Source of the DNA: a virus
Taxonomy: Duplodnaviria; Caudoviricetes
IMG/VR virus record: IMGVR_UViG_3300032167_000039
Reading direction: 5' to 3' (one strand)
DNA: 64,000 nucleotides
Both the position numbers and the translations under genes were made by a program. Shown here in pieces: positions 31,554 to 49,124 of this stretch (its first letter is position 1; every line of letters starts with the position of its first letter). The notes under the pieces were generated by a model. It saw nothing but the letters and a program-made list of their open reading frames with translations, made no database searches and had not been told where the DNA came from.

Positions 31554-31631
31554 GGGGTAGTAGACGAGTGGTATTAAGTCATCACCCTCTCAAGGTGAAG
31601 ATCGTGGGTTCAAATCCCGCCTGCCTCACCA
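31554..31631 (+). tRNA. tRNA-Glu(CUC)
   Basis: Cloverleaf, CCA. Confidence 0.9.
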
Positions 31632-31638
31632 TTTAAAT

Positions 31639-31716
31639 GGCGCCATAGACGAGCGGTATAAGTCGCCACCCCTTCAAGGTGGAGAGCGTTGGGTTCAAAT
31701 CCCACTGGCGTCACCA
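31639..31716 (+). tRNA. tRNA-Glu(UUC), C at position 33
   Basis: ccacc-ccttcaa-ggtgg, CCA. Confidence 0.82.
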
Positions 31717-33381: not shown

Positions 33382-33597
33382 ATGAAAATGAGTGATACAG
33401 AAGCACTTGATATTCTTCTTTCTTACATAGAAAGACTTGAGGATAATTATATTCAAATTTTATCAGAATGTAGTAATGAAGCATATCCTTTGTATAGCGG
33501 AGGACTTTCTGCGATTATGGATATATTAAATTTTGCAGAAAAGGATTTGGGATTGTTAGTTAAATGTAACCCACTTGACTTTTCTTCTGAAATATGA
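33382..33597 (+). CDS. Small protein, paralogue of 32700
   Basis: MSDTEALD..AIMDILNFAE. Confidence 0.6.
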   Translation: MKMSDTEALDILLSYIERLEDNYIQILSECSNEAYPLYSGGLSAIMDILNFAEKDLGLLVKCNPLDFSSEI

Positions 33598-33623
33598 TAT
33601 AATATTTATAGTGATTAAGAAAT

Positions 33624-33747
33624 GCGATTGTAGCCCAACAGGCAGAGGCAATGGACACAGGATTAAAAGACTTTGATTGGGGCAGTACCAATATCCTGTA
33701 CCATTAAAATCCATTTAGTGTGGGTTCGAATCCCATCAATCGCACCA
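33624..33747 (+). tRNA. tRNA-Leu(UAA) interrupted by a 47-nt insert between positions 32 and 33
   Basis: Removing 33657-33703 restores atgga-cttaaaa-tccat and a complete cloverleaf. Confidence 0.88.
33657..33703 (+). ncRNA. Nested mini-tRNA (acceptor stem + T arm + ACCA)
   Basis: acaggat/atcctgt 7 bp, attgg-ggcagta-ccaat, ACCA. Confidence 0.8.
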
Positions 33748-33749
33748 AT

Positions 33750-33826
33750 CTTCCATTAGCCCAATTGGTAGAGGCAATATGCTCAAACCGTATTCAGTCT
33801 CAGTTCGAATCTGAGATGGAAGACCA
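33750..33826 (+). tRNA. tRNA-Leu(CAA), short variable arm
   Basis: Loop CTCAAAC, ACCA. Confidence 0.85.
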
Positions 33827-33830
33827 TTCT

Positions 33831-33966
33831 AAGACCTTTACAGCGAAAAACTTTTTCTAAAAGAATTGCTTGTTAAGCCGTGTGTTGGAGGTTCGAATCC
33901 TTCCTCTGGATATGATCCAGAGTAGCTCAAGTGGTAGAGCAACGACCCTCTTAAGAAAAGGTCTTG
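33831..33966 (+). ncRNA. Y-like cassette 6: permuted tRNA-Asn
   Basis: aagaccttt/aaaggtcttg; TTGTTAA, T arm, ctctgga-tatga-tccagag, D arm. Confidence 0.87.
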
Positions 33967-33972
33967 TTAATT

Positions 33973-34048
33973 GGCTCTATAGCCAAGTGGGTTAAGGCGT
34001 CTGACTGCAAATCAGAAGTCCCCTGTTCGAATCAGGGTAGAGCCTCCA
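33973..34048 (+). tRNA. tRNA-Cys(GCA)
   Basis: U73-CCA. Confidence 0.92.
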
Positions 34049-34686: not shown

Positions 34687-34760
34687 GCAGCATTGGTGTA
34701 ACGGTAACATCTCTGCCTTCCAAGCAGATGTTGGGGGTTCGAGTCCCCTATGCTGCTCCA
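34687..34760 (+). tRNA. tRNA-Gly(UCC)
   Basis: Cloverleaf, TCCA. Confidence 0.92.
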
Positions 34761-36582: not shown

Positions 36583-38019
36583 ATGAGTTTTGTAGATGGA
36601 TTTAATGCAATGACAACCATGAAGACTACGGAAAATGGCGCGGTAGCTTATTCTAAACTTGATAGTGATGTTTTATCTCTTTTTGCCGTAGTTGGCGGTA
36701 TGAGAAAGCGTGATGAAGCTGATATTGTTCAGATGTATCATGCGGCTCGTAAGGAAGACAAGGAGCTTGCTGACAAGATTGTCCTCTATGCTCGTGATGT
36801 GCGTGGAGTAGGTCTTGGTGAGCGTAGAATCGGTAAGATTCTTCTTAAGGCTCTTGCTTATATTGATCGTGCAAAGGTGGAGAGAAATTTCCAGACCTTT
36901 GTAATGAATGGTCGTTTCGATGACCTTTATGCCCTTGAGGGAACCCCTGCAGAGACTGCTATGTGGCAGTTTATGAAGGATACTCTTCTTAAGGATGCGG
37001 CAGCAATGAAGGTTGGTAAGCCTATTAGTCTCGCCGCAAAGTGGATGAAGTCTATTAACACTTCTTCTGCTGAATCTAAGAGACTTGCAAGAAAGTTCTG
37101 TACTGTTGCAGGTATCTCTGAGAGAACTTATCGTAAGACCCTTGCGGCCCTTCGTAAGTATTCTAATGTAGTTGAGGTTAAGATGTCTACTAATGAGTGG
37201 GAGGCTATCAACTTCGAGGCAGTACCTTCTGTCGCAATGAAGAGATATTCTACTGCTTTTGGCAAGCATTGTCCTAATGCTTTTACTCAGTATAAGCACG
37301 AGCTGACTACTGGTGAAGCAAAGGTAAATGCTCAGACTCTTTATCCTTATGACATCACCTACCAGTTCATGTACGGTGGCAATGCCGATAAGGCTATCCT
37401 TGAAGCTCAATGGAAGGCACAAAAGAATTGGTTCAAGGAAGATGCTAAGATTGTAGTTGCAGCAGATGTTTCTGCTTCTATGACCGGAATGCCTATGGCG
37501 GCGTCAGTGGGTCTTGCAATGTATGCAGCAACTTTTAATCAAGGGTCCTATCACGGATATTATCTTACTTTTACAGATAAGCCTTATTTTTACAAGATTG
37601 ATGAAAATGAGAGTCTTGAAACTAATATTAGAAAAGTTATGAGAAACGTTGGGTATAATACTGAAATGGATAAAATGTTTGAAGCTATTTATGAAATGGC
37701 AGTAAGAGAAAATGATGCACCTGACGCGCTTGTTATTGTTTCTGATATGGAGATTGATAGATTTATGAGAGCCAATGCTTGTGATGATATCATTACAAAA
37801 TGGGTGAATAAGTTCAGAAATGCTGGGCTTGAATGTCCAAAGATGATTCTTTGGAATGCAGAGAGTAGACAGAACACATATCTTGCCCGTTCTAATAATC
37901 CTTATGTTGCTTTTGTAAGCGGTTGTTCTGCTAGTACTTTTGGTAATCTTACTGAATTAATTTCAATGAGTGCTTACGAAGCAATGGTTAAGATTCTTAG
38001 CCAGTACGAGTTTGTATAA
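36583..38019 (+). CDS. TROVE/vWA Ro60-like protein (DUF2828 type)
   Basis: TENGA, YARDVRG.GLGER, LAAKW, VPSVAM, LYPYD, MIDAS DVSASM and SDME, WN. Confidence 0.85.
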   Translation: MSFVDGFNAMTTMKTTENGAVAYSKLDSDVLSLFAVVGGMRKRDEADIVQMYHAARKEDKELADKIVLYARDVRGVGLGERRIGKILLKALAYIDRAKVERNFQTFVMNGRFDDLYALEGTPAETAMWQFMKDTLLKDAAAMKVGKPISLAAKWMKSINTSSAESKRLARKFCTVAGISERTYRKTLAALRKYSNVVEVKMSTNEWEAINFEAVPSVAMKRYSTAFGKHCPNAFTQYKHELTTGEAKVNAQTLYPYDITYQFMYGGNADKAILEAQWKAQKNWFKEDAKIVVAADVSASMTGMPMAASVGLAMYAATFNQGSYHGYYLTFTDKPYFYKIDENESLETNIRKVMRNVGYNTEMDKMFEAIYEMAVRENDAPDALVIVSDMEIDRFMRANACDDIITKWVNKFRNAGLECPKMILWNAESRQNTYLARSNNPYVAFVSGCSASTFGNLTELISMSAYEAMVKILSQYEFV

Positions 38020-43439: not shown

Positions 43440-44363
43440 GTGGCTGCGATTATCGAAATGTTAATCGGGCTTCCTTAGCCTGGTTGCGGTAAATCAACAT
43501 ATGCAAAAAATCTTATGAAGCAGAATCCCAATATTGTAGTTGTATCTTCCGATGCAATTCGCAAGGAGCTTTATGGTTCTGAAGAGGATCAGTCTCATAA
43601 TCAGGAGGTCTTTAACGAAGTTTTCAAAAGAACTTGCGCTGCGATTAAGAATAATAAGCATTGTATTATTGACGCAACTAATCTTTCTCGTAAGCGTAGA
43701 ATTGCTTTTCTTAAGCAGTTCAATAACTGCGAGAAGAGAGCTACTGTATTTGCAATCCCTTTTGAGGTTTGTTGTGAGCGTAATAATTCTCGTGAAAGAA
43801 CTGTTCCTCAGTATGCAATGGATAGAATGTATCGCTCTTTTGAGCCGCCGCACTGGGCAGAGGGATTTGATTTTATTGAAGTAATTCATTATGAGAACCC
43901 GGCCCTTTCTATTGAAGACGTGCTTGCAGAGAATATCAAGTGTGAACACGATAATCCCCATCATTCTCTTAGCTGTGGAAAGCATTGTCTTGCCGCAGAG
44001 GAAGCCGCAGGAATTATTTGTGAGAATGAATATTGGGATTCAGTAACGACTCATCTCATTGCCAAGGCAGCACGCTATCATGATATGTCTAAGTATAAGT
44101 GTAAGGTATTTCATAATATGAAGGGCGAACCTACAGATATTGCTCATTACTATAATCATGAGAATGTTTCTGCATATGACTATATGGCATATGAGGCGGG
44201 GATGGAGCCGGAGTATGATACAATTGTTATTGCAAACTTGATTGCAAATCATATGGTATTCTATACTGGTGAAGCGGCAATCCAGAAGAGAAGAGATATT
44301 TATGGAGTAGGATTTTGGTCAATGCTCGAGGTTTTGAATAGAGCCGACAGGGCAGCGCACTAA
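43440..44363 (+). CDS. Polynucleotide kinase (AAA_33) + HD domain, with in-frame TAG in the P-loop
   Basis: SD+GTG 43440, MLIGLP*PGCGKST, SSDAIR, IIDATN, HD, HE. Confidence 0.85.
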
Positions 44364-45642: not shown

Positions 45643-46719
45643 ATGCTTAATTTGCAGACTTTTATTCGTGAAAATGAAAACTGGAGAGAGCTTATTTCTG
45701 AGAAGCCCTATTGCATTAAGGTAACTGAAAAGGAAGATCTGGTCTGCTTTAAGTATTCTCAGATTGATTCCGATTTTAAGGAGCCTTTGGTAAGAGAGTG
45801 CCGCGGCATTATTCTTGAAAAGGATACTTGGAATGTAGTGGCCTATGCTTTCAATAAGTTCGGTAACTATGGAGAGTCTTACGCAGACGAAATCGACTGG
45901 GCTTCTGCTCGTGTTCTTGAAAAGGTAGATGGCTCTCTTATTAAGGTTTATTTCCATAATGGCGCTTGGTGTGTAGGTACCAATGGAACCATTGATGCAA
46001 GCGATGCAGAACTTTCTGCGCCGCCCTATGAAACCTTTATGGAATTATTCGATGTTGCGGCAGATGTGTGCGGTCTTGATTATGATAGACTTGATCCTCA
46101 TTATACCTACATCTTTGAACTTCGTTCTCCTTACAATAAGGTTGTAGTACCTTATGAAGATATTCGTATCGTCCATATCGGTACTCGTAACAACATTACT
46201 TATGAGGAAGTGGAGGTAGATATTGGTATTGAAAAGCCTAAGCAGTATATGCTTTCTTCTCTTGATGATTGTATTGCTATGGCGGCGACTTTTGACTTTA
46301 CACAGGAAGGCTTTGTCGTAGTTGATAAGAACTATCATCGTGTCAAGGTTAAATCTGAAGATTATGTTCGTGTACATCGTCTTGCCAATAACGGCTCTAT
46401 TACACTTGAAAAAGCGATTGACCTTATTCGTACAAATGAACTGGAAGAATTTCTTGTATATTGCCCTCAGTATACAGATTTTATCAATAATGTTCGTCTT
46501 CGTCTTGATAAATTCCATTCTGATATTTATTTTAATGTTAATATGGCACTGATCGAAAAAATGGATTGTGAAACTCGTAAGGATTTTGCGGCGGTAGCGA
46601 AAACCTTTAAGTATCCTATGGTATGGTTTAAAGTTTATGAAACAAAGTCTTTTGATATTGATGCATGGATTAACTCTTTAACTACAGCAAAGCTAGCTAC
46701 ATATCTTGAAAAGTATTAA
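45643..46719 (+). CDS. T4 Rnl1-type RNA ligase
   Basis: RECRGIIL, KFGN, EKVDGS, FEL, EGFVV, RVKVK. Confidence 0.9.
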   Translation: MLNLQTFIRENENWRELISEKPYCIKVTEKEDLVCFKYSQIDSDFKEPLVRECRGIILEKDTWNVVAYAFNKFGNYGESYADEIDWASARVLEKVDGSLIKVYFHNGAWCVGTNGTIDASDAELSAPPYETFMELFDVAADVCGLDYDRLDPHYTYIFELRSPYNKVVVPYEDIRIVHIGTRNNITYEEVEVDIGIEKPKQYMLSSLDDCIAMAATFDFTQEGFVVVDKNYHRVKVKSEDYVRVHRLANNGSITLEKAIDLIRTNELEEFLVYCPQYTDFINNVRLRLDKFHSDIYFNVNMALIEKMDCETRKDFAAVAKTFKYPMVWFKVYETKSFDIDAWINSLTTAKLATYLEKY

Positions 46720-48093: not shown

Positions 48094-48185
48094 AGAATTT
48101 TCTTGGCGACTAAATACTTTCTGTCCTTATTGGACAGAAACACTTGCACTATTCATTAACTGGATTTGCGAAAGGAGTTAAGAAA

Positions 48186-49124
48186 ATGAGTGAGATGAAG
48201 AAGTATGTAGATATTGAAAGAGTTAAGGAGTCTTATGCTTCTACTTTTGAAGAGGGAGAGAATATTGTAATTCAGGTTAAGATCGATGGCTCCAACGCAT
48301 CTATCGCATATGACGAGGAGAACGACTGTCTTGTGGCATTTTCTCGCCGCCAAAAGCTCAATGAGCAGAACATACTCAATGGCTTTTGGAATTGGGTTCA
48401 GACGCTCAATGTAGAGCATTTTAAGAAGATTCTTGGCACTCGTTATATCATTTTTGGCGAGTGGCTTACGCCCCATAGTGTAAAGTATCCCGAAGATATG
48501 TATAAGAAGTTCTATATGTTTGATGTGTGGGATAAGGAAACAGAGCAGTATCTCCCACAGGAAGATGCACTTAATATTTATGATGCTCTCCACTATTATC
48601 TCCCTCATTATGTTTGGACGCTTTATAGTGGTCCTTTCGTATCTTGGGAACATACCCTTGGTTTTCTTAAGGAGAATATCTATGGTGAGTCTCCTTGTAT
48701 GGAGGGTATCGTAATTAAGCGTCAGTCTAAGCTGTGGTCTAAGTCTTCTCGCTTGCCTTACTATGTTAAGATTGTAAATGAGAAGTTTTCTGAGGTTCAT
48801 AGCTCTAAGCCTAAGGTAATTGACCCCGCAAAGCTCGCGGCAAAGGAAGCTGAGCAGGCGGCAGTAGCAGAGATTGTTACAAAGCGTCGTTGCGAAAAGC
48901 AGATTCAGAAGTTTATCGAAGACGGTATTATCCCCGAGGATTGGGGCGGCGAGTCTATGAAGGAAATTTCTAAGCGTTTGCCTAAGGCTATCTATGAGGA
49001 TTGTCGTAAGGAAGAGCCTGAGATTGTGGCGGCGAACGAGAACTTCGGTAAGATTTGTGCAAGTCTTGCTATGAAGCATGCTCGTGAAATGCTTGATGAT
49101 AAGTCTAAGTTTTTAGGGACTTGA
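48186..49124 (+). CDS. Rnl2-type RNA ligase
   Basis: KIDGSN, FGEW, FDV, EGIVIK, K..NEKFSE. Confidence 0.88.
   Translation: MSEMKKYVDIERVKESYASTFEEGENIVIQVKIDGSNASIAYDEENDCLVAFSRRQKLNEQNILNGFWNWVQTLNVEHFKKILGTRYIIFGEWLTPHSVKYPEDMYKKFYMFDVWDKETEQYLPQEDALNIYDALHYYLPHYVWTLYSGPFVSWEHTLGFLKENIYGESPCMEGIVIKRQSKLWSKSSRLPYYVKIVNEKFSEVHSSKPKVIDPAKLAAKEAEQAAVAEIVTKRRCEKQIQKFIEDGIIPEDWGGESMKEISKRLPKAIYEDCRKEEPEIVAANENFGKICASLAMKHAREMLDDKSKFLGT

Follow-up and report, generated by a model that had tools for sequence, protein, structure and literature searches.

Can a transfer RNA (tRNA) gene be split by a reduced copy of a tRNA and still supply a working product? The question is raised by positions 33624-33747 of IMG/VR virus record IMGVR_UViG_3300032167_000039 (Duplodnaviria; Caudoviricetes), a stretch of 64,000 nucleotides from an AT-rich phage genome (34% GC) which was analysed as a whole and is called here the window. 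At this locus the anticodon loop of a leucine tRNA gene, tRNA-Leu(UAA), contains 47 nt that resemble the top half of a tRNA with its CCA end. Is the insert a genuine intron? Is the interrupted gene maintained as a tRNA? If the RNA is spliced, which enzymes would cut it and which would seal it? A sequence-only reading of the locus had suggested a new intron type, excised by host tRNA-processing enzymes and repaired by a phage polynucleotide kinase (PNK) and RNA ligase. Our analysis indicates that the insert is very probably a genuine intron and a member of a mobile, tRNA-derived family of 'mini-tRNA' introns that occupy the anticodon loops of phage tRNAs. Taken together with a splicing route that would employ RNase P, a cut after CCA and a ligase, this is the best explanation of the locus as a whole, and one to which we give roughly even odds.

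Using default settings ARAGORN locates 25 tRNA genes within approximately 6 kb of the window. The interrupted leucine gene is not among them, and so the only phage tRNA for UUA in the window is missed. The corresponding codon, TTA, is indeed very common as the sequence-only reading had asserted, with 35% of leucine codons and about 25 per 1000 codons in the long open reading frames (ORFs) of the window. The Rfam tRNA model (RF00005) produces a 26th match, at 33624-33744, covering the whole model with a score of 44.9 bits against a cut-off of 29 bits, and the alignment includes a single 53-nt insertion, placed within the anticodon loop. When introns are allowed ARAGORN reports a tRNA-Leu(taa) with a 47-nt intron at this locus. 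The components of the gene are as follows.

33575-33603, + strand: predicted sigma-70-type promoter, TTGACT, 17-nt spacer and TATAAT, with TG before the -10 element (11 of 12 consensus matches).
33624-33656, + strand: exon 1 of tRNA-Leu(UAA), comprising the acceptor 5' strand, D arm, anticodon-stem 5' strand and C32 (Rfam alignment).
33657-33663, + strand: intron, 5' strand (ACAGGAT) of the acceptor-like 7-bp stem, which pairs with 33693-33699.
33664-33675, + strand: intron linker, 12 unstructured nt in the place of the D and anticodon arms of a tRNA (fold).
33676-33692, + strand: intron, T-arm-like hairpin with a G-C closing pair (fold, covariation).
33693-33699, + strand: intron, 3' strand (ATCCTGT) of the acceptor-like stem, abutting the T-like stem to give a 12-bp stack (fold, covariation).
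33700-33703, + strand: intron, ACCA tail (discriminator and CCA), with the 3' boundary immediately after it (sequence, allele comparison).
33704-33747, + strand: exon 2, comprising U33, the anticodon UAA, anticodon-stem 3' strand, short variable loop, T arm, acceptor 3' strand and an encoded ACCA (Rfam alignment, allele comparison).

The promoter is a near-consensus, extended -10 type, with its end 20 nt ahead of the first base of the tRNA. Exon 1 reads GCGATTG TA GCCC..GGC A ATGGA C and exon 2 reads TTAAAA TCCAT TTAGT GTGGG TTCGAAT CCCAT CAATCGC ACCA. Removal of exactly 47 nt restores a 77-nt cloverleaf with the 7-nt anticodon loop CUUAAAA, in which all pairs of the acceptor (7/7), anticodon (5/5) and T stems (5/5) are formed, and uninterrupted homologs of this tRNA exist. 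An ordinary tRNA-Leu(UAA) of Bacillus phage P59 matches that of the window in the D arm, the short variable loop and the anticodon loop, and the exons therefore belong to a genuine phage leucine tRNA family.

The insert itself, at 33657-33703 between C32 and U33, is arranged as ACAGGAT / TAAAAGACTTTG / ATTGG GGCAGTA CCAAT / ATCCTGT / ACCA. Folded in isolation it forms a perfect 7-bp stem and a perfect 5-bp stem capped by a 7-nt loop, with neither a D arm nor an anticodon arm, and its ends fall exactly at base +1 and at the CCA end of the tRNA top half that it mimics. A minor amendment to the first description of the T-arm-like hairpin is that its loop, GGCAGTA, departs from the usual T-loop at positions 54 and 58; most family members, discussed below, carry TGCAA instead. 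We also considered, as a conserved feature, a different fold that pairs AAUGG with CCAUU (the tail together with U33 and U34), and rejected it because the glutamine members of the family lack it.

Is the insert truly an intervening sequence? Comparison with related phages, which the sequence-only reading had recommended, is informative. GenBank phages include no close relative of the window and a BLAST search with the insert against 50,697 GenBank phages gave nothing meaningful. Related loci, here given L numbers, were obtained via the neighbouring Ro60-like (DUF2828) gene, from IMG/VR (L005-L008) and from ENA/Logan assemblies, largely pig-gut metagenomes (L029-L042). In L032/L033 (6835-6910), where the Ro60-like protein is 89% identical, the tRNA is uninterrupted and agrees with that of the window in its acceptor stem, its anticodon stem and its loop, CTTAAAA. 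The more distant L036 and L039 (71% and 62% Ro60 identity) carry a 47-nt insert at the identical site, with sequence differences. Alignment of the window with L032 displays a clean 47-nt indel. Exon 1 equals the uninterrupted allele except for a one-base indel in the D-loop, and the promoter layout upstream is the same. Since this allele reads ...ATGGAC TTAAAA..., the boundaries C32|A...A|U33 are fixed to the base. The same plus/minus pattern is seen for tRNA-Gln (L008 and L027 with, L005 without) and also for tRNA-Lys and tRNA-Glu.

Diverged copies of the insert in three independent assemblies (window, L036 and L039) rule out an assembly artefact. Other searches added little. An exon-anchored pattern scan of IMG/VR returned only chance matches inside coding sequence (L001-L004), and a first scan with an intron-core pattern found the contig of L008 and one chance match (L009) but no others. 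A pattern scan of genome contigs yielded 13 chance matches in GC-rich genes and one that was true (L015). A metagenome scan using the Ro60-like protein recovered one uninformative contig of 1.7 kb, and an exact-protein look-up for the small ORF upstream of the tRNA gave no match.

Both the insert and the exons show the imprint of selection. The outer stem of the insert in L039, ATGAGAT/ATCTCAT, differs from ACAGGAT/ATCCTGT of the window by three pairs changed on both sides, and an insert in tRNA-Glu (L032 2323-2369) has identical block lengths with stem sequences that are almost entirely different. A formal pair count was made on four aligned members of equal length, other members being parsed by structure in scripts. 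Pairing in the four is complete across the 48 stem cells, and compensatory change is seen at 7 of 12 pairs. When partners are slid by 1-3 columns as a control, pairing falls to 31-44%, and no shuffle attains the observed score. With respect to the exons, the intron-bearing allele of L039 differs from the window at 5/7 acceptor pairs and one T-stem pair, with every difference compensated, and in all intron-bearing alleles the joined exons retain 7/7, 5/5 and 5/5 pairing and the loop CUUAAAA. Because compensatory changes keep the exon cloverleaf perfect, the interrupted gene is under selection as a tRNA; the same changes rule out a pseudogene or dead gene. Judging from this conservation, splicing of the RNA into a working tRNA is almost certainly required.

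The principal observations of the sequence-only reading are thus upheld. The Rfam alignment and the uninterrupted allele agree with a 47-nt insert between C32 and U33, the fold agrees with the stems, the ACCA end and the missing arms, exact removal does restore the tRNA, and plus/minus alleles together with stem and exon covariation identify a real intervening sequence. The outcomes it feared, an artefact of assembly or an insert absent from relatives in a decaying tRNA, did not materialize: L036 and L039 have the insert, L032 is the minus allele and the cloverleaf is kept.

The insert is not an isolated case. A structure-based scan and a split-tRNA finder were applied to all fetched loci, and 15 members were parsed, 11 of them distinct. 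ARAGORN with introns allowed misplaced boundaries and anticodons (Gln was called 'Glu' and Asn 'His'), and these were corrected from uninterrupted orthologs. The 15 occur in six tRNA species and share one layout with covariation, which the copy in the window displays in full. Members in addition to those at the locus described above are listed.

L008 5398-5448, identical to L027 5664-5714: tRNA-Gln(UUG); L027 is a longer stretch of the 29.6-kb contig L015 from a metagenome-assembled genome.
L032, and a 63-nt form with a small D-arm-like hairpin in L027, L039 and L041: tRNA-Glu(UUC), two lineages.
L027 and L036: tRNA-Asn(GUU).
L008: tRNA-Lys(UUU).
L037: tRNA-Leu(UAA) with a long variable arm.

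In all 15 the 7-bp stem begins at the first intron base, and 76 of 77 cells pair. The inner 5-bp stem pairs in 54/55 cells, with the closing G-C pair invariant in the 11 distinct members. Loops are of 7-8 nt and mostly consist of TGCAA and two more bases, the T-loop pattern except that position 55 is G, and the equivalents of C56 and A57 are conserved. The TGCAA loop also occurs in complete, ordinary phage tRNAs (L045, L051). The tails, of 4 nt, are ACCA, TCCA, GCCA and, once, ATCA, so that 10 of the 11 conform to NCCA. Without its intron, every parsed member has a loop of 7 nt and the same anticodon as its uninterrupted ortholog, for example CTTT|GAC in Gln compared with CTTTGAC in L005, and likewise for Lys and Glu compared with L027 and L040. 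The insertion point is 32/33 in the window gene and 35/36 in most others, and a further IMG/VR scan, read by eye, added 36/37 (L044) and 34/35 (L049). Since the insertion point varies, the boundaries follow the helix ends of the intron rather than a fixed position in the host tRNA. In a single case, L049, there is no CCA and the 3' boundary lies directly after the discriminator-like base, which is the canonical RNase Z site; this fits a 3' cut by the tRNA 3'-end machinery, as far as one sequence can indicate.

The linker ranges from 12 to 826 nt among relatives, and it is here that homing-endonuclease ORFs are located. The long, ORF-bearing members are the Lys (729 nt) and Glu (861 nt) introns of L008 and the Asn intron (427 nt) of L039, all with the same ends as the short forms. 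Among these ORFs, one clearly encodes a GIY-YIG endonuclease (E = 2.3e-11); the remaining two contain HNH motifs that Pfam supports weakly (E = 0.003 and 0.06). The intron copy in the window has no ORF; they are found only in relatives. Presence of the leucine intron is patchy (window, L036 and L039 plus, L032 minus), and the Gln intron is identical at 51/51 positions between L008 and L027 while the exons differ at 14/72 positions by hand count. The patchiness, the identical Gln intron and the linker ORFs are, at the level of sequence, characteristic of a family of mobile introns that has given rise to derivatives without an ORF. This mobility had been overlooked in the sequence-only reading.

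Such behaviour bears on whether the RNA is spliced at all. The insert could be selfish DNA lodged in a dispensable tRNA, or the real product might be a CCA-ended minihelix, for instance a decoy for tRNA 3'-end enzymes or toxins, with the tRNA halves no more than a processing scaffold. Phage tRNAs are often dispensable, a close relative lacks the insert and others use a long-arm tRNA-Leu(UAA), the homing-endonuclease ORFs reveal selfish spread, and an intron that stays identical between diverged Gln exons may have a value of its own. We nevertheless consider an unspliced insert improbable. The exons are kept as a flawless cloverleaf through compensatory changes, removal always leaves a loop of exactly 7 nt that bears the anticodon known from the uninterrupted ortholog, a strong promoter is retained, and the anticodon loop would not have to stay intact in a gene that served as scaffold alone.

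Does the insert belong to an intron class already understood? Group I introns of tRNA-Leu(UAA) in cyanobacteria, plastids and some bacteria share with it the tRNA species, the anticodon-loop location and mobility when ORF-bearing. Those introns are over 200 nt in length, self-splicing and placed at 34/35, whereas the window intron is of 47 nt, at 32/33, and has no match to a group I model. It is too small for the group I core (P3-P9, about 200 nt or more); Rfam yields nothing for it either at the gathering threshold or with E relaxed to 10, and the long family members give no group I match at E up to 1. Archaeal and eukaryal bulge-helix-bulge introns, for which EndA/Sen does the cutting and RtcB or Trl1 the sealing, resemble it in being small, protein-spliced and able to occupy non-canonical positions, and sealing by yeast Trl1 is a parallel to sealing by a system like T4 Rnl1/PNK. 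The window junctions, however, lack the 3-nt bulge, 4-bp helix and 3-nt bulge: the 5' junction abuts the 7-bp helix after one unpaired C, and the 3' junction is in a 10-nt single strand. On these grounds we reject both classes, as the sequence-only reading had done.

A very small self-cleaving or self-splicing RNA is a further candidate. The size of the 47-mer is within the range of small self-cleaving ribozymes, and these tRNA clusters often contain ribozymes like that of hepatitis delta virus (HDV). The region, however, has no match to any ribozyme family, even with E allowed up to 10. Apart from CCA, conservation of bases is confined to the closing G-C pair and the T-loop-like CA. The stems are free to covary, the linker shows no conservation, and one small fold would need to accomplish two precise cuts and a ligation. 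We regard this possibility as very remote.

Closer in shape are the minihelix substrates of RNase P and tRNase Z, and the mascRNA released from MALAT1, which resemble the mini-tRNA intron in their coaxial stack of 12 bp, capped by a T-loop-like structure, and in their 3' NCCA. They are released from transcript ends, whereas the flanks of the window intron would need to be rejoined. We know of no system in which rejoining of both flanks into a working tRNA has been shown.

Introns of a related kind have been noticed before. Devoto et al. (2019; PMC6784885) described 'enigmatic' introns in the tRNAs of Lak megaphages, one of which 'may itself encode a tRNA', and a 2026 survey of jumbo phages (PMC13037316) remarked that such introns 'could encode another tRNA'. 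The minimal flush layout, its covariation, forms that bear an ORF and a mechanism are absent from both papers, and a full-text literature search identified no other that describes them. As in the window, the anticodon loop of a Lak tRNA (PMC6784885) is split by a short insert with an acceptor/T-arm element next to the 3' boundary, plus and minus alleles occur, and intron sequences are highly conserved across samples. The Lak introns differ in length, at 79-114 nt, in having a separate 5' hairpin and A-rich spacer before the tRNA-like part, and in ending 2-3 nt after the stem without CCA. The window intron shares the 3' tRNA-like element but none of these other attributes. It ends in ACCA and is the tRNA top half alone, flush from +1 to CCA, in a gut phage of about 165 kb whose relatives have ORF-bearing forms. 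The claim of a new intron type was therefore overstated: the minimal flush form is new, yet tRNA-like introns in phages were already on record in both of these papers. What we have is a minimal flush variant of a known but uncharacterized kind of intron. To the earlier descriptions the window adds a clean pair of plus and minus alleles, exon covariation among intron-bearing alleles and six host tRNA species in one clade of approximately 165-kb phages, together with three endonuclease-bearing members and a CCA-less member with the 3' end shifted to the discriminator. An origin from whole tRNA genes is suggested by linker remnants (TA GTTTAA.. in several members) and by one Lak intron that encloses a full inner cloverleaf.

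How might the intron be removed? Bacterial RNase P cuts acceptor/T-arm minihelices with a 3' RCCA at +1 and pairs with the RCCA, and a 12-bp coaxial stack with a T-loop cap and 3' NCCA constitutes the minimal shape read by RNase P and tRNase Z, a part of the tRNA that the CCA enzyme reads as well. T4 Rnl1 seals nicks in anticodon loops. The window intron presents the 7+5 bp stack and the ACCA tail, with a loop, GGCAGTA, that is only T-loop-like. Excision by tRNA end-processing enzymes that read structure would predict the coincidence of intron ends with tRNA-mimic ends that is seen in 15 members. We envisage that the precursor would be transcribed from the gene's own promoter and that host RNase P would recognize the 12-bp stack and NCCA as a pre-tRNA, cutting at intron +1 to leave exon 1 with a 3'-OH. 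A tRNA 3'-end endonuclease would then cut right after CCA, so that exon 2 would start with a 5'-phosphate. Base pairing in the acceptor stem and anticodon stem of the tRNA would hold the halves together, and the remaining nick in the anticodon loop could be closed by the Rnl1-like or the Rnl2-like ligase of the phage, a kinase step being unnecessary. The expected product would have ...GGCAAUGGAC joined to UUAAAAUCCAU... (...AUGGAC|UUAAAA...). Every step is inferred, and this particular route is a plausible proposal to which we give slightly less than even odds.

There are precedents for the second cut. Thermotoga maritima tRNase Z is cited in PMC3161902 (as Minagawa 2004) for an endonucleolytic cut exactly after CCA, and Escherichia coli RNase E cuts exactly after CCA on proline tRNAs (PMC5291269). 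By analogy these cuts, being hydrolytic, would place a 5'-phosphate on exon 2. A search for EndA and RtcB that covered G001 (a complete related phage of 167 kb), G003, G004 and 10 ORFs of the window found neither, and the complete related genome has no RNase Z-like gene either; the cutting enzymes would therefore be those of the host. Dockerin-domain proteins encoded by relatives hint at cellulosome-bearing Clostridia as the host.

Several observations weigh against the RNase P route. The base at -1 is C, not the U that RNase P prefers, and pairing between the -1 base and the discriminator, possible in four members, might shift the cut. The loop of the window copy is off the T-loop pattern at the two positions noted above, and one family member has ATCA in place of NCCA. 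CCA inhibits most bacterial RNase Z enzymes (PMC3161902), and the choice of 3' cutter is guesswork. The additional 5' hairpin of Lak introns would remain after an RNase P cut alone (PMC6784885), and their mechanism may differ from our proposal, or mechanisms may differ between families.

Candidate sealing enzymes are encoded in the window.

45643-46719, + strand: candidate sealing enzyme, T4 Rnl1-like RNA ligase (PF09511, E = 1.5e-12).
48144-49124, + strand: candidate sealing enzyme, Rnl2-type RNA ligase (PF09414, E = 2.2e-22).
43440-44363, + strand: PNK-like gene with an in-frame TAG in the P-loop (PF13671 on 43515-44363).

The ligases seen are of the 3'-OH/5'-P type only. The Walker A motif of the PNK-like gene (43440-43517) reads GLP*PGCGKS, with a TAG and an extra Pro codon, compared with ALPGAGKS in the relative L029 (18621-), and the window gene would appear to be either broken or dependent on read-through or hopping. 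RNase P-type hydrolytic cuts give 3'-OH/5'-P ends, and a ligase can therefore seal them without PNK. The suggestion that the tRNA depends on phage PNK is on both counts doubtful.

The same genes bring us to the main rival explanation, in which the RNA is spliced by a dedicated phage or host endonuclease that reads the mini-tRNA shape and leaves 2',3'-cyclic phosphate and 5'-OH ends, to be healed by kinase/phosphatase and sealed by the Rnl1-like enzyme as in yeast or T4. The phages are equipped for such repair, with the PNK-like protein, two metallophosphoesterases, both ligases and, in relatives, Thg1-like proteins. Many small nuclease genes (PD-(D/E)XK, GIY-YIG, DUF2726) lie inside the tRNA cluster, and the extra 5' sequence of Lak-type introns suggests that something besides RNase P sets the 5' site. 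The window PNK has a stop in its P-loop, however, the complete relative has no EndA-like nuclease, and a substrate of a dedicated enzyme would not need a CCA tail or a T-loop. Repair genes are also carried by relatives without the intron, and HDV-like ribozymes after CCA-less tRNAs may explain their presence. We judge this alternative unlikely, though less so than an unspliced insert. Returning to RNase P, our tentative generalization, held with the same reserve as the route itself, is of mobile introns made of cut-down tRNAs, which would be spliced by RNase P, a 3'-end endonuclease (acting after CCA, or after the discriminator where CCA is missing) and an Rnl-type ligase. Endonucleases would be carried at the site where the anticodon arm has been lost, and the free mini-tRNA may have a job of its own.

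Other features of these loci deserve mention. Relatives L036 (1-462), L039 (17949-18785) and L040 (17250-18086) encode Thg1-like proteins, associated with 3'-5' nucleotide addition at tRNA 5' ends, near RNA-repair genes; they also have NAD-salvage genes and the dockerin-domain proteins. HDV-like ribozyme matches (RF02682, 30-34 bits, below cut-off) are present in L008 (5488-5555 and 9612-9668) and L027 (5329-5395). Both of those in L008 begin right after CCA-less, intron-bearing tRNAs, which would therefore need splicing, 3'-end healing and CCA addition. A cyclic di-GMP-I riboswitch aptamer (69-72 bits) is found in the phage tRNA cluster region (L008 7465-7550; L027 7864-7947).

Interruptions of other kinds occur in the same clusters. 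The tRNA-Gly(UCC) gene at L005 8573-8674, also in L006 and L007 and at about 8268-8370 in L036, has a hairpin insert that is not tRNA-like in its anticodon loop, CTTCC|TGAGCACA..TGTGTGTTGAGG|AA, of 31 nt in L005-L007 and 29 nt in L036; the window ortholog (34687-34760) is uninterrupted. In L032 (3321-3900) a tRNA-Pro(UGG)-like gene has an interruption of about 480 nt, almost all of it a PD-(D/E)XK endonuclease ORF (PF11645, E = 1e-20), with ends not obviously of the mini-tRNA type.

The tRNA complement has its own peculiarities. Two nucleotides downstream of the interrupted gene is a paralog.

33750-33826, + strand: tRNA-Leu(CAA) with a short variable arm (ARAGORN, Rfam).

Both leucine tRNAs, UAA and CAA (window 33624-33826; L012 268-422), have a 5-nt variable loop, whereas bacterial tRNA-Leu is typically long-armed; in L005-L008 the corresponding cluster region has a normal long-arm tRNA-Leu(UAA) instead. 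The phage tRNA-Glu genes (window 31554-31716; L007 3113-3188) have the loop CCTTCAA (CCTCTCA in the CUC gene), in which C33 replaces the near-universal U. ARAGORN predicts a tRNA with anticodon UCA ('SeC') at L008 8357-8429, a possible TGA-reading suppressor. Between tRNA genes of the window, at 33859-33973, is a match to Y RNA-like (YrlA) RNA with a tRNA-like module (45 bits, E = 6e-9, under the Rfam cut-off of 69 bits), 2.6 kb upstream of the Ro60-like (DUF2828/DUF7788) gene at 36583-38019.

What would follow? The default ARAGORN search misses the interrupted gene, and phage tRNA sets may consequently be under-counted. The system is easily testable, requiring a 124-nt transcript, purified RNase P and ligase. 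If the proposed route is true, protein-dependent tRNA splicing would exist in bacteria and their viruses, assembled from ordinary tRNA end-processing enzymes and an RNA ligase, a third way to splice tRNA beside group I self-splicing and the EndA/Sen pathway. The phage Rnl1 and Rnl2 ligases would gain a routine job beyond the repair of tRNA damage inflicted by the host, the 'enigmatic' introns of Lak and jumbo phages would be explained, and it would mean that tRNA genes can become mobile introns.

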